A stretch of DNA of 64,000 bases. Source: an uncultured Candidatus Saccharibacteria bacterium (lineage in GTDB: Bacteria; Patescibacteriota; Minisyncoccia; Phycocordibacterales; Phycocordibacteraceae). Positions 3,110 to 53,992 of this stretch are shown piece after piece (the stretch's first letter is position 1; every line of letters starts with the position of its first letter). Where the stretch lies: the NCBI GenBank assembly GCA_964507275.1, contig CAZDPG010000001.1, positions 468,577 through 532,576 on the forward strand, given 5' to 3'. The translations under genes were made by a program, and so were the position numbers. The notes below the pieces were generated by a model. That model did no database searches. It worked only from the letters and a program-made list of their open reading frames with translations, and had not been told where the DNA came from.

Positions 3110-4171
3110 TTATAGATAATTCTCGAAGGTCTTCGGGTCGAGCGCGTGCTCATACGCATGCTCGACCGTCACTTCCCCGCGCTGTACAAGCTCGGCGAGC
3201 GAGCGGTCCATGTCGATCATGCCTTCCTGCGAAGAGGTCTGGACCACGGCGCTAATCTCATGCGTTCGCGAATCGCGAATGAGAGTGCTCACGGCGCTGT
3301 TGTTGATGAGAAGCTCGCACGCCGGAATGAGCCCTCCTGATATGCGAGGAATGAGACGCTGGGAGAAGATGCCTGCGAGGCTTCCTGCGAGCTGTACGCG
3401 CACCTGACCCTGCTGCTCTGCAGGGAACATGTCGATGATGCGATCGATAGTCTGCGCGGCATTATTGGTGTGCAGCGTGGATAGCACGAGGTGACCAGTC
3501 TCGGCGGCGGTCACCGCCGAAGAAATGGTCTCGTAATCGCGCATTTCACCGACCATGATGACGTCGACGTCTTCGCGGAATGCGCCTTGTAGTGCGGTGT
3601 GGAAATCCGGCGTATCGATATAGATCTCGCGCTGATGAATGAGCGACTTTTTCGGTGCGAAAAGATATTCGACAGGATCTTCAATAGTGAGGATGTGCTC
3701 TGAGCGCGACTCATTGATACGGTCGATCATAGCGGCGAGCGTTGTCGATTTCCCCTGCCCCACCGGCCCAACGACGAGGAAGAATCCCTGCTTATGCTGC
3801 GTAAAGGTCTCAAGGATAGAAGGGAGATTCAATTCGGTGAACGTACGAAGTGCATGTGGTATGAGACGGAGCGCGAGCGCGATCGTTCCCTGTGCGTAAA
3901 AACCGTTGATGCGGAAACGCGAGTCCGACTTGTGCGTATAAGAGAGATCGATAGCCTGATTCTCCCTGAAAGCTTCCCATCGATCCGACGGCACGAGGCT
4001 TTTCAATATCGCTTCGGTCTCCTCGCTGGTAAATGCTGGGTATTTCGTGATGGGAATGAGCGTGCTCGCGACACGGATCATCGGCGACCCACCGGCAAAA
4101 ATATGGAGATCCGAGCCGCCCTGACTGACGACGAGATCCAAAAGCTCCTCGAGACGCTTGTCGCTTGTCAT
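3110..4171 (-). CDS. pilT: Twitching-motility/retraction ATPase PilT
   Basis: 353 aa. Walker A GPVGQGKST, Asp box, His box. PilT-like length and motifs. Confidence 0.9.
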   Translation of the reverse strand: MTSDKRLEELLDLVVSQGGSDLHIFAGGSPMIRVASTLIPITKYPAFTSEETEAILKSLVPSDRWEAFRENQAIDLSYTHKSDSRFRINGFYAQGTIALALRLIPHALRTFTELNLPSILETFTQHKQGFFLVVGPVGQGKSTTLAAMIDRINESRSEHILTIEDPVEYLFAPKKSLIHQREIYIDTPDFHTALQGAFREDVDVIMVGEMRDYETISSAVTAAETGHLVLSTLHTNNAAQTIDRIIDMFPAEQQGQVRVQLAGSLAGIFSQRLIPRISGGLIPACELLINNSAVSTLIRDSRTHEISAVVQTSSQEGMIDMDRSLAELVQRGEVTVEHAYEHALDPKTFENYL

Positions 4172-10716: not shown

Positions 10717-10805
10717 GGATGGGTGACTGAGTGGCCGAAAGTACCACACTGCTAACGTGGCAGGGGCGTTAAAACCCCTCGAGGGTTCGAATCCCTCCCC
10801 ATCCG
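10717..10805 (+). tRNA. tRNA-Ser (anticodon GCU)
   Basis: Acceptor GGATGGG/CCCATCC, anticodon loop CUGCUAA, long variable arm, T-loop GGTTCGAATCC, discriminator G. CCA not encoded. Confidence 0.85.
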
Positions 10806-36007: not shown

Positions 36008-37399
36008 TTAGACCTTCTTCACCGATTCTTTCGTAATCTCCCACGTCTGCCCTGCCTCAGGGACGATGGCAGAGCCGCCGAGGTAGTCGTGGATGCGCTG
36101 GGCGAGGAATCGTTCGGCAGAAGGCTCGCCATGAGCTGTGAAGATGGCTTTCGTCCGTTTATCGGCAAGCGCTGCTTCGGCAAATGCGAGGAGCCCGTCG
36201 CGATCGGCATGGGCTGACCAGCCTTCAAGTTTCTCTATCTTCGCCTTTATCTTTACTTCAGCACCGGCGATACGCACACTCGATGCGCCCTCCATCATGC
36301 GTCGCCCCGGCGTGCCAGGGGCCTGGTAGCCGACCATAAAGAGCGTGGTGGCGGGGTCGGGCAGATAGCGTGTCTCCCAGCGACCGATGCGGCCGCCATG
36401 ACTCATCCCCGCGCCGGCGATGATGATTTTCGGCCCCGGTACCTTCTCTATCGCCATCGACTCTTCGCTTGAAAGTGTCTGTTTCAAGAATGGGAATTCG
36501 AAAATACTCCCTTCTCGCCTCATCTCATCCTCTGTCTCTTTTTTGAAGTATGTCATCCCCCACTTCTCGTACACTGCAGTCACATGTATGGCGAGTGGTG
36601 AATCGAGAAAGACGGGAACCTTCGGCAGATCTCCTGCGTCAAAGAAGTTGGAGAGCTCGTAGAGCATGAGCTGAGTGCGTTCGACCGAGAAAGCGGGAAT
36701 GAGGATTGTACCTCCTCTTGCTATGGCTCGCTTCATCTCTTCAAGCAAAAGAGGTCCGCGATTTTCTTGATTCGGGTGCTGTTTGTCTCCGTACGTGCTC
36801 TCCATCACAAGCGCATCAGCATCCGGCACTGGCTCCCAGTCAGGGAGAAGCGGCGAAGGAGAGTTACCGATGTCGCCGGTAAATGCGACACTCGTCCCTT
36901 CCTCGTCTCTGATGCGCACACTCGCCGAGCCGAGGATGTGACCCGTGTTGCGCAAGTAGGCCGAGAGCCCGGGCGCGACCTCTTTCTCCGTATGATATTC
37001 GAGCGTCTCGACGAGCGAGAAGGCAGTCTCGACATCGTTGATGTCGTATAAAGGAAGCCTCCCTAGACGCCCAGCTTCTTCTGCGAGGATGTGCGAGGAA
37101 TCGAGCAGGATAAGAGCTGCGAGGTCCCGCGTTGCTGGCGTCATGAATATCTTTCCACGGAAGCCATCCCGCACAAGCTTCGGTATGCGACCGACATGGT
37201 CGAGGTGAGAATGCGTCACGATAAGAGCGTCAATCGTTGTGACGTCATACGGGAACGGCCCGTACATGCACTCTTCGCAGAAGTCACCTCCCTGCTCGAT
37301 ACCGCAATCAACAAGAATCCTTCCCTTCGCTCCGGTGATTAAAAAGTTTGAGCCGGTCACCTTGCCTGCTCCGCCGTAGAAACCGAGTCGTAATGCCAT
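36008..37399 (-). CDS. MBL-fold beta-CASP RNA-metabolising hydrolase
   Basis: 463 aa. HSHLDHVG (HxHxDH) and beta-CASP motifs. Typical bacterial MBL fold metallo-hydrolase RNA specificity domain protein. Confidence 0.85.
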   Translation of the reverse strand: MALRLGFYGGAGKVTGSNFLITGAKGRILVDCGIEQGGDFCEECMYGPFPYDVTTIDALIVTHSHLDHVGRIPKLVRDGFRGKIFMTPATRDLAALILLDSSHILAEEAGRLGRLPLYDINDVETAFSLVETLEYHTEKEVAPGLSAYLRNTGHILGSASVRIRDEEGTSVAFTGDIGNSPSPLLPDWEPVPDADALVMESTYGDKQHPNQENRGPLLLEEMKRAIARGGTILIPAFSVERTQLMLYELSNFFDAGDLPKVPVFLDSPLAIHVTAVYEKWGMTYFKKETEDEMRREGSIFEFPFLKQTLSSEESMAIEKVPGPKIIIAGAGMSHGGRIGRWETRYLPDPATTLFMVGYQAPGTPGRRMMEGASSVRIAGAEVKIKAKIEKLEGWSAHADRDGLLAFAEAALADKRTKAIFTAHGEPSAERFLAQRIHDYLGGSAIVPEAGQTWEITKESVKKV

Positions 37400-37436
37400 G
37401 TAGCAACTTTACCATGGAGCTATTGCTACTAAGCGC

Positions 37437-37465
37437 AAAAATCCCGTCTTTTTGAGACGGGATTT
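37437..37465. terminator. Hairpin with flanking T/A runs (bidirectional terminator-like)
   Basis: AAAATCCCGTC-TTTTTGA-GACGGGATTTT. Same family as the hairpins at 37655-37679 and 51253-51273. Confidence 0.5.
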
Positions 37466-37470
37466 TTGCG

Positions 37471-37684
37471 GAACTGTCCTCTCCGGCAACTTTATTGTGC
37501 CAGGTGGGATAAACAACGGCGGCTATCGGATTCCTTCACAGGCTTCACCAAGCACGTCTTAATAGTTATTCTCCCTTGTAGGAAGTAAGTTGCGTTTTTA
37601 AGAACAGCTCCACTTACTAGTATACCTGCTCCCCGGAGTGGGCGTGTGGAAAACAAAAATCCCGCCATGAGCGGGATTTTCTGT
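37471..37684 (+). ncRNA. Candidate small RNA (terminator-bounded intergenic transcript), paralog of 51247-51431
   Basis: Bounded upstream by a hairpin+T run and downstream by the AAAATCCCGC-CATGA-GCGGGATTTT terminator. Shares CTGTCC...TATTGTGCCAGGT 5' motif with the second locus. Ends can pair (CTCCGG/CCGGAG). Confidence 0.3.
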
Positions 37685-37703
37685 CTATCCGAACAAATGT
37701 TCC

Positions 37704-38180
37704 CTAGAACGCCTCTTCGGCGCTGATGAAGTCGAAATCATTACGCTTGTATCCGAAGAGCTCATCTCCTTTGAAGAAGCGTTCTACTTCCACAATCCCA
37801 TTCTCGATACTGTCAGATGCGTGGACAAGATTCGATTGTGTCGAGAGCGAGAGGTCGCCGCGGATGGTACCTGCTGCGCCTTCGTAGGCTTTCGTCGGCC
37901 CCACGATAAGTCGAGTTGCGGCAACCGCATTTATACCCGAAAGCGCCAGCACCACCACCGGCGACGTCTTCATGAACGTCTTGATGCCGGAGAAGAACGG
38001 CTTGTCCTTGATGTGTGCATAGTGCGCTTCAAGGAGTGCGTCCTCGAGCTCAATCATTTTCATGCCTACAATCCTCAGCCCTTTGCGTTCGAAGCGGCCA
38101 ATAACCTCTCCCATGAGTCCGCGATGCACTGCGTCCGGCTTCAATATAATGAGTGTCTTTTCTTCTTTCGGATGTGCCAT
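37704..38180 (-). CDS. ndk: Nucleoside diphosphate kinase
   Basis: LIILKPDAVHRGL...NAVHASDS are NDK motifs. Confidence 0.93.
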   Translation of the reverse strand: MAHPKEEKTLIILKPDAVHRGLMGEVIGRFERKGLRIVGMKMIELEDALLEAHYAHIKDKPFFSGIKTFMKTSPVVVLALSGINAVAATRLIVGPTKAYEGAAGTIRGDLSLSTQSNLVHASDSIENGIVEVERFFKGDELFGYKRNDFDFISAEEAF

Positions 38181-50512: not shown

Positions 50513-51127
50513 TTATGCAGACACGACTTCGAGCAGCGTGCCGCGGCGGCCCGGTACGGCACCCGAGATGACGATATGGCCTGCCTTCGCATCGACCGCG
50601 AGGACCTTGAGGTTCGTGACGGTTACCCGGTCCGTACCCATACGGCCGGCCATCTTCTTTCCCTTCACGACACGACCGCCAGCGCGACCGCCTGAACCGC
50701 CGATAGAACCAGGGGAGCGCTCGGTGTGCTTCTGACCGTGACTGCGCGGACCGCCATGGAAACCGTGGCGCTTCACGACGCCTGAGAAGCCCTTACCCTT
50801 GGAAAGGCCTGAGACACGTACGACATCACCGACTGCAAAAGTCGATACGTCGATAACCGCTCCCTCCTCCACGCCTTCTGCGCCACGGAATTCGCGGAGC
50901 GCTTCAAAGCCCTTGCCGTCCGTGTGACCGAGGACCGCCTTACTCACGTTCTTCGTCTTGCGAGAACCCATACCGACCTGGACAGCTGCATAGCCGTCCT
51001 TCCCCGTCTCAGTCTTCACCTGCGTGACCGTCACCGGAGCGACATTCAGAATCGTACCTGCATAGGCACGACCATCATCCGCGAAGACGCGGATCATATT
51101 CTCTTTGGTGGCGAGGATGAATTTCAT
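50513..51127 (-). CDS. rplC: 50S ribosomal protein L3
   Basis: MKFILATKENM...GKGFSGVVKRHGFHGG is canonical L3. Confidence 0.93.
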   Translation of the reverse strand: MKFILATKENMIRVFADDGRAYAGTILNVAPVTVTQVKTETGKDGYAAVQVGMGSRKTKNVSKAVLGHTDGKGFEALREFRGAEGVEEGAVIDVSTFAVGDVVRVSGLSKGKGFSGVVKRHGFHGGPRSHGQKHTERSPGSIGGSGGRAGGRVVKGKKMAGRMGTDRVTVTNLKVLAVDAKAGHIVISGAVPGRRGTLLEVVSA

Positions 51128-51246
51128 TTTTTAAAGCAAAACGCGCGACAGCAAATCGCGTCGCGCGAGTTGCCATAGGTCCGAGCTGACTGCAGCTCGT
51201 ACGTAGCTTTAGGAGCACTCTACACGAACCCAGAAAAAGATGCAAG

Positions 51247-51431
51247 AAACACAAAATCCCGCTAAGCGGGATTGTTTCGTGAAAGATCAATAGGGAGCGA
51301 AGGCCTCCGAGGGTCGTGTGCGCATCTGCCTTGAGCGAGAGCCCGTCGACTGGGATGGCACAAAGTGGCGCCTGAAGCACACACGAATCCCCGGAGGTTA
51401 CCTGGCACAATAGCATGCTCGGACAGAAAAA
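51247..51431 (-). ncRNA. Candidate small RNA or leader element between rpsJ terminator and rplC, paralog of 37471-37684
   Basis: On the minus strand: rpsJ terminator, TTTTTCTGTCC, GCTATTGTGCCAGGT, about 130 nt, then terminator AATCCCGC-TTA-GCGGGATTTTG. Same bounding architecture and motifs as the 37.5-kb locus. Confidence 0.3.
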
Positions 51432-51461
51432 CACACAACCGCCTTTACGGGCGGTTGTGTG
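51432..51461 (-). terminator. Intrinsic terminator after rpsJ
   Basis: Minus strand: CACACAACCGCC-loop-GGCGGTTGTGTG followed by TTTTTCTG. Confidence 0.55.
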
Positions 51462-51480: not shown

Positions 51481-51861
51481 CTAGACCATCTTGACGTCGA
51501 TCGTCACTCCACTTGGGAGATTGAGGTTCGTGAGGGCCTCTATCACCTTCGGTGAAGGATTCATGATGTCGATGAGGCGCTTATGGATGCGCATTTCGAA
51601 CTGTTCGCGAGCGTCTTTGTGGACGAACGTCGAACGGTTCACTGTCCAACGCTTGATCTCAGTCGGGAGCGGCACGGGGCCGACGACGACAGCATCGAAG
51701 CGGGCTGCAGTATCCATAATCTGCTTCACCGAGAGATCAAGAATCTTGTGCTCATAGGCACGGACGCGGATACGGAGCTTGTGCTCCACCGGAGCAGCTG
51801 TCGCAGCTGCCTTCTTCGAAACACGTTTTGCTTTTGGCTTTGTCTCCGTCTCTGTTTCCAT
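51481..51861 (-). CDS. rpsJ: 30S ribosomal protein S10 (Lys/Ala-rich N-terminal extension)
   Basis: KLRIRVRAYEHKILD...SPHVDKDSREQFE pattern. About 25-aa N-extension. Confidence 0.9.
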   Translation of the reverse strand: METETETKPKAKRVSKKAAATAAPVEHKLRIRVRAYEHKILDLSVKQIMDTAARFDAVVVGPVPLPTEIKRWTVNRSTFVHKDAREQFEMRIHKRLIDIMNPSPKVIEALTNLNLPSGVTIDVKMV

Positions 51862-51884: not shown

Positions 51885-53084
51885 TTACGCCGTAATCTTC
51901 GTCACGACACCTGCACCGACGGTCTTGCCGCCTTCGCGGATAGCGAAGCGCTGCTGCTCCTCAAGAGCAACCGGGGCGGTGAGCTTCACCTTGAAGGTGA
52001 CCGTATCGCCCGGCATGACCATCTCCTTGCCTTCTGGAAGGGTGACTTCGCCAGTCACGTCCGTAGTACGGATGTAGAACTGCGGCTTGTAACCCGAGAA
52101 GAACGGAGTGTGACGTCCGCCTTCATCCTTGGAGAGGATGTAGACTTCCGAATCGAATTCAGTGTGCGGCGTGACCGAGCCGGTCTTTGCGAGCACCTGG
52201 CCGCGATGCACGTCTTCCTTCTTTGTACCGCGGAGAAGGATACCGGCGTTGTCGCCTGCCTGGCCTTCGCCGAGCTGCTTGTTGAACATTTCGATGCCGG
52301 TGACGGTCGTCTTCATCGTCGGCTTGATACCGACAATCTCGACTTCCTCGCCCACCTTGATCACACCGCGCTCGATGCGGCCGGTAACCACGGTGCCGCG
52401 ACCTTCAATCGAGAAGATGTCCTCAATCGGCATAAGGAACGGCTTGGAGACTTCACGCTCCGGCATATCGAAGTACGAGTCCATCGTGTCGATGAGCTGC
52501 TTCGCCTTCTGTGCCCACTCGTCAGAGACATCCTTTGCTTCGAGCGCCTTCAAGCCCGAACCGCGGATAATCGGCGTATTTGCGCCGTCGTAGCCCTGCT
52601 TCGTGAGAAGCTCGCGGATTTCCTCTTCGACGAGGTCGATGAGGTCAGGCTCTTCCACCATGTCCACCTTGTTCAAGAAGACGATGAGCTTCTTAAGGCC
52701 CACCTGCTTCGCGAGGAGGATGTGCTCGCGCGTCTGAGGCATCACGCCGTCAGTTGCTGCGACCACGAGGACTGCGCCGTCCATCTGAGCGGCACCAGTG
52801 ATCATGTTCTTGATGTAGTCAGCGTGACCCGGTGCATCGATGTGCGCGTAGTGACGGTTCGGTGACTCATACTCCGAGTGGTGGAGCGCGATAGTGATAC
52901 CGCGTGCCTTCTCCTCCGGTGCGGAGTCGATGTTATCGACACCTTCGACGCGGGCGCTGTAGCCCTCAGCGGTCAACATCGAAAGGACATTGAGGATGCC
53001 GGCGGTAAGGGTCGTCTTGCCGTGGTCAACGTGGCCGATGGTGCCTACGTTCAGGTGCGGCTTGTTGCGATTGAATTCTGCCAT
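51885..53084 (-). CDS. tuf: Elongation factor Tu
   Basis: [23 protein letters not shown]-motifs. 399 aa. Confidence 0.97.
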
Positions 53085-53365
53085 AGTGAATCGGTTAATT
53101 TATTGGTTAAATCACGAATTAATCCGACGCTAGTCGGAAAAAGCTCCGGCCAGCTGATTACAGAAAGCAGACAAGCCAAAGAGCGACGCCAAGATGCGTT
53201 ATAGAGACTATACGCAAGGGTGGTAAGAAATGCAACTTGTCGCAGGGACAAAACAACGGCCGCGGCCTTCAATCATGCAGGGTATTGCATATTAATAAAT
53301 ATGTGCTATCATACTAAACGGTGTGCAGTTATGCACCGCCCTTTCCACTGTTATTGGAGACTACT

Positions 53366-53896
53366 ATGTCCAACGTTCTTATGGTTCCAACAAAGCTGTA
53401 TCAGATTAACAGTTACGACGGTTCTGAACTATCGATTGCAGGGTGGTGGAAGATCCCGAAGAAACTCTTCCCGAGTTCGTTACCTCAGCCGATTGGAAGC
53501 AATTTCGACCTACTGTACCTGTGCCTCGAGCTCAAGGTCGTCCAAGATGAAGAGAGCTGGCAGGATGATGGCCCTTTCGTTGCCGAACTAGAGATCGGCA
53601 CGGTGGAGGTGGGCTTTCTTTCCCCACCAATCTTTCTTGCACACAGGACTCTCTCCATCGGACACTTGTGGTCCATAAACGATCGGCGATCTGGGTTTCC
53701 AATCAAACTCCCCGTACCGGCTTATGGAAGGGCGACGTTTGAGGGTTTCCAAAACGAACTGTTCACGAGCATGCTCGCTGGAATCATTCGGAGTCCGAAG
53801 GCCACAGTGCGCTGGGACGAAGAAGGCCTGGTCGCCACGATTAACTTCGGAAACACGTACATTTCGACGCGCGAACACGCAGTAGAGCCAGATTGA
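53366..53896 (+). CDS. Hypothetical protein (lower-GC insertion between tuf and fusA)
   Basis: 176 aa from an ATG with GGAGA SD 6 nt upstream. Upstream TTGCAT-16-TATCAT promoter-like element, own terminator downstream. Lower GC than flanks. No known motif. Confidence 0.5.
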   Translation: MSNVLMVPTKLYQINSYDGSELSIAGWWKIPKKLFPSSLPQPIGSNFDLLYLCLELKVVQDEESWQDDGPFVAELEIGTVEVGFLSPPIFLAHRTLSIGHLWSINDRRSGFPIKLPVPAYGRATFEGFQNELFTSMLAGIIRSPKATVRWDEEGLVATINFGNTYISTREHAVEPD

Positions 53897-53911
53897 TTGG
53901 CTCTGAAGCGC

Positions 53912-53944
53912 AAAACGGCAAGCCATCTGGCTTGCCGTTTTTAC
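53912..53944. terminator. Bidirectional intrinsic terminator (plus-strand hypothetical gene and fusA)
   Basis: AAAACGGCAAGCC-ATCT-GGCTTGCCGTTTTTAC. Confidence 0.65.
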
Positions 53945-53992
53945 TTTTGTGAAATTCCCTGTGCATACCAGGTATGCACAACAAGAATCGAG

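Follow-up and report, generated by a model that had tools for sequence, protein, structure and literature searches.

The spacer between the genes of ribosomal proteins S10 (rpsJ) and L3 (rplC) in a 64,000-nucleotide (nt) stretch of patescibacterial DNA, hereafter the window, contains a module of ~150 nt (51403–51250) that, judging from its sequence, we lean towards reading as a small accessory RNA, that is, as structured, non-coding cargo whose expression is putative. All features of the region are read on the minus strand, on which the genes follow one another as fusA, tuf, rpsJ, the 353-nt spacer (51480–51128), rplC, rplD, rplW and rplB. Folding of the spacer gave z = −6.6 against shuffled sequence. 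A comparison with the rpsJ–rplC region from ~45 related genomes and contigs separated three layers: an intrinsic terminator behind rpsJ (T1), the promoter and leader of rplC, and a variable cargo slot. The slot of the window is 235 nt long and consists of T1, a 27-nt linker and the module, which ends in a second terminator hairpin (T2); the T1–T2 interval is ~155 nt. A preliminary description of the window had taken this segment for the second copy of an element near 37.5 kb and proposed that it was either an independent small RNA (sRNA) lodged inside the S10 operon or an attenuator-type leader of the genes downstream. Its observation is partly confirmed and its interpretation partly supported: the sRNA proposal keeps a discrete, non-coding and structured unit with compensatory changes in three other lineages but loses its argument from paralogy. 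The nearest L3 proteins belong to metagenome-assembled genomes (MAGs) labelled Kaiserbacteria, Paceibacterota or Parcubacteria, and proteins identical to those of the window occur in groundwater metagenomes; the protein matches identify the host as a Kaiserbacteria-like member of the Patescibacteria, or Candidate Phyla Radiation (CPR). To our knowledge, non-coding RNAs and gene regulation are almost unexplored in this group, and the element offers a candidate accessory RNA that is structured, shows compensatory changes, lacks an Rfam match and is open to testing.

The element is built from five parts: the helices P1 and P2 of a long hairpin, a variable apex carrying the invariant motif AGUCGACG, the segment UCUUUCACGAA, and the extended hairpin T2 (Table 1). 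Across the spacers of relatives, T1 and the rplC leader are conserved, and homologues of the element occupy the same position in three lineages, L153 (E value 4e-49), L001, a UBA6033 MAG (1.5e-10), and L008 (2.7e-5), whose L3 proteins are 98%, 85% and 80% identical to that of the window; T2 forms the 3′ end in all of them. A rebuilt covariance model, R2, scores the element homologues at 93–163 bits; run over 629 kb of related loci and the remainder of the window, it detected no other copy, and it gave no homologue on 14 viral contigs picked by an element motif. Among seven more close L3 relatives the element was found in L153 only (in L182 the upstream DNA is too short), and a scan of a metagenome collection that does not include the window's own sequence returned 44 matches to TCTTTCACGAANNAATCCNGC, all unrelated and mostly coding.

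What we regard as the cleanest evidence for structural constraint on the element comes from aligning the window with L153 (93.5% nt identity). The 155 nt of the element contain six changes, of which two form a compensatory G–C to A–U pair, three lie in loops and one lies in a linker; for comparison, there are 10 changes within the 27 nt of the upstream linker and none within 104 nt of the rplC leader. The element's rate of evolution is about one tenth of that of the neighboring upstream linker. In the four-sequence alignment, fitted to the structure of the model, 4 of the 19 pairs of P1 and P2 show compensatory changes, another six vary one-sidedly and 95.7% of the cells are paired, compared with 30–60% in slid controls. 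The palindromic apical AGUCGACG, the most constrained part, suggests a loop–loop or protein contact.

The conserved unit is classed as non-coding, as no conserved open reading frame (ORF) was found in the element on either strand across the homologues; the idea of a small ORF or type I toxin was dropped, no ORF being conserved in frame or in sequence. In all four homologues the sense strand folds 4–13 kcal/mol better than the antisense strand, and the helices include ~12 G–U pairs, which are A–C mismatches on the opposite strand. This strand bias, together with the G–U pairs, points to selection on a minus-strand RNA and not on a DNA palindrome. Searched with Rfam at the gathering threshold, the whole window has a tRNA-Ser (10717–10805) as its sole match, and permissive searches of this locus and the 37.5-kb locus (E up to 10 in the window, up to 1 in three relatives) gave no family, the subthreshold matches being terminator look-alikes. 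The signal recognition particle (SRP) RNA was considered on account of a CAAGGCAGAUG string shared with E. coli 4.5S RNA and was abandoned, as Rfam gave no SRP match at E up to 10, no GNRA-capped domain IV was seen, and CAAGGCAGAUG is not conserved in L001 or L008.

The two hairpins that frame the interval have the features of intrinsic terminators, namely a G+C-rich stem-loop, a U-rich tract and a conserved position at the end of a unit, and termination is predicted at both. T1 begins 20 nt past the rpsJ stop codon; its 12 pairs, 8 of them G–C, enclose a loop of 6, and its tail reads TTTTTCTGTC. Its stem is 85–97% conserved after rpsJ and present in nearly all close relatives, and the comparison identifies it as the predicted intrinsic terminator that would close the tuf–rpsJ transcript; rpsJ is probably cotranscribed with tuf, since the gap between the two genes is only 23 nt. 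The preliminary description was right in giving rpsJ an intrinsic terminator of its own, which uncouples the S10 gene from the L3 gene in this genome. It was right, too, about the TTTTTCTGTCC-GAGCATGC-TATTGTGCCAGGT string, which follows directly after T1 (51431–51400), and about the AATCCCGC-TTA-GCGGGATT hairpin, the upper stem of T2, which lies 127 nt upstream of the rplC ATG. This upper stem closes a loop of 3 with 8 pairs, 5 of them G–C, and runs into the tail TTGTGTTTCT. An outer helix GACAG/CUGUC around T1 was dropped, as it is not kept in L153.

In this clade the ancestral order is rpsJ and T1, followed by rplC with its promoter and leader. The few bases that separate T1 from that promoter form a slot whose insertions differ from lineage to lineage, and the RNA module is the insertion of the window lineage and of three others. 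We infer that the element is transcribed codirectionally with the ribosomal genes and that any function is exerted in trans. The 5′ end of its RNA would be set by a weak promoter with a −10 box only, or transcription would enter by read-through of T1 from the very active tuf–rpsJ unit, two routes that are proposed because a −35 box is lacking. The transcript would end at T2, giving a stable sRNA with the conserved apical loop as its functional surface, and T2, which abuts the rplC promoter, would take over from T1 the shielding of that promoter from upstream transcription. Upstream of P1, at similar distance, all four copies have a −10-like hexamer (TATTGT in the window, TATCGT in L153, TACTAT in L001 and TATAAG in L008), and the hexamer of the window has GC in front of it, as do several promoters in this genome, whose consensus is TTGCAT-17-(GC)TAnnnT.

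Some observations weigh against a functional accessory RNA, and several of them favor the rival that survives best. The TTGCAT −35 box occurs in none of the four element copies, which makes an independent promoter doubtful. In L001 the element directly follows a 51-codon ORF that recurs in L023, with no terminator between the two, and in that lineage it may be no more than a 3′ untranslated region (UTR). L152, which has ~91% nt identity on both sides of the slot, lacks the element and carries other cargo instead; since close relatives such as this one do without it, its function, if any, is dispensable. The conserved segments and the adjacent rplC leader, the sole target searched, gave duplex energies no better than those of shuffled sequences. 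Finally, the covariation in P1 and P2 comes from four lineages only and from an alignment fitted to the very structure in question, and its statistics are thin because no more lineages are known. Given the arrangement in L001, the 3′ UTR or terminator explanation remains serious, and we consider it unlikely without dismissing it. According to it, the element is an inert remnant or a plain transcript end: either the 3′ UTR plus terminator belonging to a cargo gene, which the window and L008 have lost and L001 has kept, or the spacer of a tandem terminator, T1 plus T2, that guards the rplC promoter from the very strong transcription of tuf–rpsJ. The hairpin would then be there for RNA stability or termination only, and no function would attach to the RNA itself. 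The ORFs inserted in relatives each have a T1-like hairpin of their own, which indicates that cargo units bear terminators and fits this explanation as well. However, a spacer would need neither an invariant AGUCGACG at its apex nor compensatory changes in a stem of 19 bp, an inert spacer would not be expected to evolve so much more slowly than the linker beside it, and T1 alone is enough in many lineages.

Compared with bacterial sRNA genes and sRNAs derived from 3′ UTRs, the accessory element is similar in its length of ~150 nt, its non-coding nature, the 5′ hairpin, the conserved loop or linker, the Rho-independent terminator and the location between two transcription units. It differs in having no recognizable −35 box, in its very narrow and patchy occurrence in four lineages and in its position in a slot that otherwise holds protein-coding cargo. 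We class it as a narrowly distributed representative of structured small RNAs or transcript-end modules.

The setting of the element is itself unusual. The stretch from the rpsJ stop codon to the rplC promoter ranges from 53 nt (L005, L012 and L165), barely more than T1, to 2010 nt, and has at least 12 unrelated contents among the relatives (L004–L015, L023, L085–L090, L152 and L154–L163). They include a HicB–HicA pair, an NYN-domain gene with a 146-codon ORF, a TrmB-like gene, a 188-codon ORF, a 665-codon protein with putative peptidoglycan binding, and small ORFs; a second, T1-like hairpin often stands behind the inserted ORFs. Such extreme variation in content marks the rpsJ–rplC junction as a cargo slot. 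In the minimal spacers (L005, L012, L017 and L165) T1 directly abuts the rplC promoter, and on comparative grounds T1 followed directly by the promoter is the ancestral state. One slot gene is shared between lineages: a ~51-codon ORF (MRYLI..GxRWPWFNRMTYRPFKGA..GFWY.LPWNR) is found at 53–208 of L001, directly upstream of the element, and at 3488–3643 of L023.

Variable genomic islets and integration hotspots between core genes often bear toxin–antitoxin cargo. The rpsJ–rplC slot resembles them in holding HicAB, NYN-domain and unrelated genes between conserved flanks; unlike them, it lies inside a ribosomal-protein cluster and is tens of bases wide, and no integrase or att-like repeats were identified. 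A hypervariable slot, often bearing HicAB, is thus lodged in an otherwise conserved ribosomal-protein cluster; as contigs break off or change lineage at this point, it is of consequence both for metagenome binning and for phylogenies built on ribosomal proteins. A more speculative idea, to which we attach little weight, is that the element is an RNA-only accessory module, of regulatory or defence type, which competes with toxin–antitoxin and nuclease genes for this hotspot. Its GUCGAC loop would then serve dimerization or protein capture, and the junction would be a dedicated landing pad for small selfish or defence cargo, driven by read-through from the very strongly expressed tuf–rpsJ unit. 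No known principle is overturned by the element, the rplC leader or the cargo slot.

Two contigs change lineage within the region. L097 is 99.8% identical to the window from the rplC promoter onward and 79.5% on the rpsJ side, and L086 is its mirror, matching the window without a difference as far as the promoter and diverging from there on; in L097 (1–512) and L086 (3640–5456) the switch between 99.8–100% and ~80% falls exactly at the rplC promoter or leader. The switch may reflect real recombination or an assembly chimera, the latter because both cases sit at contig ends and come from the same sample. Neither contig was used to score presence or absence of the element, and L097, at first a strain with identical L3 and no element, was downgraded for its lineage switch and its position at a contig end; the cross-lineage covariation in the leader hairpin P3, described below, is unaffected.

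The breakpoints also enter the argument for a different explanation, in which the constraint acts on DNA. The element is an imperfect palindrome with a central GTCGAC and could be a recombination or insertion site, or a relic resembling a miniature inverted-repeat transposable element, targeting the terminator–promoter junction. That the slot is a hotspot of gene turnover is compatible with this, as are the duplication of T1-like hairpins around inserted ORFs (L085, L087, L088, L090 and L015), the similar tails after T1 and T2, GTGTGTTTTTCT and TTGTGTTTCT, and the change of lineage exactly at the rplC promoter in L086 and L097. Yet the single-site result of the R2 searches is unlike a multicopy mobile element, the hairpin is strand-specific owing to its G–U pairs, neither a transposase nor an integrase gene lies next to it, and the two breakpoints are possibly chimeric. 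We consider the DNA-level explanation improbable.

Downstream of T2, rplC has regulatory sequences of its own. Its promoter is of the same type as the tuf (53235–53207) and fusA promoters of the window, and the final ~120 nt upstream of the gene are conserved in every close relative, whether the element is present or absent; the leader itself was found in ~25 lineages, most of them without the element. In the leader, a single-stranded segment with the consensus GCYYYUAAAGCUACG across relatives precedes two hairpins. The first, leader P2 (51198–51183), varies freely in sequence and size between lineages. The second, P3, pairs 51167–51160 with 51149–51142, has the flanks GGCAA/UUGCU and is followed by UUUUGCUUU and the start codon. 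Among 15 distinct sequences, 7 of its 16 pairs show compensatory changes, and none of 500 shuffles reached the observed score. The P3 model, R3, matches upstream of rplC in all close relatives and has no match in more distant Patescibacteria. This third terminator-like hairpin (51167–51142) near rplC was overlooked by the preliminary description. By eye, no Shine–Dalgarno sequence was seen before rplC in the window (51128–51140) or at the rplC starts of relatives, and an A/U-rich tract, UUUGCUUUAAAAAAUG, stands there.

The segment 51128–51216 fits a ribosomal-protein leader in being a conserved, structured and covarying 5′ UTR directly upstream of ribosomal-protein genes, and it matches no Rfam family (E up to 10 in the window, up to 1 in relatives). 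The conserved promoter and the covarying leader, both downstream of T2, indicate that rplC has its own promoter and attenuator-like leader, and we propose the latter as a previously undescribed candidate ribosomal-protein leader for rplC-rplD-rplW-rplB. With such control of its own, the "S10 operon" would be split in this clade, rpsJ going with tuf and L3-L4-L23-L2 being controlled separately. The proposal of an attenuator-type leader for rplC was sound for the spacer, where a strongly covarying candidate exists, but not for the flagged element. That the element is itself the attenuator leader of L3-L4-L23-L2, the L4-responsive S10 leader moved to a new place, is highly improbable: T2 is terminator-like and lies upstream of rplC, but the conserved TTGCAT-17-TAGAGT promoter between the two puts the element outside the rplC 5′ UTR, the element occurs in 4 lineages versus ~25 for rplC with its leader, and it has neither an Rfam leader match nor complementarity to the rplC leader beyond that of shuffles.

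The leader of the E. coli S10 operon mediates L4-dependent transcription attenuation and translational repression. The rplC leader is similar to it in having a terminator-like hairpin, P3, close upstream of a ribosomal-protein operon that encodes L4. The differences are that the leader here precedes rplC and not rpsJ, which belongs to the tuf transcript, and that it has no sequence or structure match to any Rfam family; the feature showing the resemblance is the leader at 51128–51216 and not the flagged element. A parallel in position is the candidate L4 leader that Eckert and Weinberg (2020, PMC7247131) describe for the Archaeoglobi, a structured leader that likewise stands directly before rplC, at the head of rplC-rplD-rplW-rplB, and not before rpsJ. 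That candidate belongs to another domain of life, and the parallel again concerns 51128–51216 and not the flagged element.

P3 closely resembles two apparent terminators of this genome, one behind rplB (48547–48504) and one between the genes secY and adk (39618–39572). These P3-like hairpins (GCAAAACUCGCGACC...GGUCGCGAGUUUUGCUUUUU), both on the minus strand, imply that the ribosomal cluster is cut into short units. Downstream of the end of the L3-L4-L23-L2 unit (48504) follows a non-ribosomal gene, DapD/THDPS-like in L091.

The claim that the element is the second copy of the one at 37.5 kb did not hold. The two loci share the 13-mer TATTGTGCCAGGT (BLAST E value 0.77) and a generic terminator hairpin with the stem AATCCCGC, and their interiors are unrelated: the similarity of the segment from the 13-mer to the hairpin is at z ~ −0.4 relative to shuffles under four scoring schemes. 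The window contains 152 exact repeats of at least 13 nt, compared with ~83 in Markov-1 simulations, and a single 13-mer joining two intergenic regions is expected given such abundance. In L153 the 13-mer reads TATCGTG-CAGGT and the CTGTCC motif is lost, and the 13-mer is absent from L001, L008 and 80 related loci. The models R1 and R2 reach the 37.5-kb locus via the hairpin only (R2 15.5 bits, E value 0.23), a type of hairpin that serves as an ordinary terminator elsewhere (37438–37466 and L015), and the match there is on the plus strand, opposite to the flanking ndk and beta-CASP genes. The 13-mer and the AATCCCGC...GCGGGATTTT hairpin do occur in the same order and at similar spacing in both loci, but in view of the unrelated interiors, the hairpin-only model matches and the many repeats, we give almost no credence to paralogous copies of one sRNA gene. 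By the sequence comparison, neither locus is a copy of the other, and paralogy fails as an argument for an sRNA.

Table 1. Features of the rpsJ–rplC region and of the 37.5-kb locus, in window coordinates
Feature	Position	Strand	Details and basis
tuf	51885–53084	minus	ORF list
rpsJ (ribosomal protein S10), 126 aa, N-terminal extension	51481–51861	minus	ORF list; PF00338 on identical protein
T1, predicted intrinsic terminator of tuf–rpsJ	51461–51432	minus	CACACAACCGCC-CGTAAA-GGCGGTTGTGTG then TTTTT
Linker, poorly conserved	51431–51400	minus	−10-like GCTATTGT (TATTGT 51412–51407), without −35 box; 13-mer at 51412–51400
Bipartite long hairpin	51397–51304	minus	P1, 51397–51389 with 51312–51304; P2, 51386–51377 with 51323–51314
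Invariant apical AGTCGACG / AGUCGACG within variable apical region	51351–51344	minus	folds, covariance-model matches
Invariant TCTTTCACGAA / UCUUUCACGAA, partly lower stem of extended T2	51286–51276	minus	alignment of window, L008 and L001; cmsearch alignments
T2, extended terminator hairpin (predicted)	51281–51250	minus	upper stem 51273–51255; lower stem CACGA/TTGTG; U-rich tail to 51246
rplC operon promoter (predicted)	51245–51217	minus	−35 TTGCAT 51245–51240, 17-nt spacer, −10 TAGAGT 51222–51217; conserved in ~28 related loci
rplC 5′ leader (candidate)	51216–51128	minus	single-stranded GCUCCUAAAGCUACG, P2 hairpin, CCUAUGGCAA, P3 hairpin, UUUUGCUUUAAAAA, ATG 51127
rplC (L3), heads L3-L4-L23-L2 unit	50513–51127	minus	ATG at 51127; unit closes at P3-like terminator 48547–48504
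Other locus, 304-nt gap	37400–37703		between ndk (37704–38180, minus) and beta-CASP nuclease gene (36008–37399, minus)

The gap at 37400–37703 is bounded by two hairpins of the AAAATCCCG type (37438–37466 and 37656–37680) with ~190 nt between them, and the second is, on the minus strand, simply the ndk terminator. The gap folds well (z = −5.7), and the six strain-level contigs readable there have the identical sequence. A sigma-54 promoter in the reverse complement of the 13-mer (TGGCAC...) was rejected: at neither locus does the distance to the −12 element fit, and the two distances are unequal.

The tuf promoter gives the tuf transcript a 5′ UTR of 122 nt. The fusA–tuf gap (53085–53992) looks like a second variable slot: on the plus strand it contains an ORF of 176–191 codons without a Pfam match (53321–53896), followed by a bidirectional terminator (53912–53941), and in L084 the gap has a 101-codon ORF on the other strand instead. 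Elsewhere in the window we noted exact direct repeats of 74 nt (1235–1308/1704–1777), 31 nt (14313–14343/14761–14791) and 40 nt (35357–35396/36027–36066).

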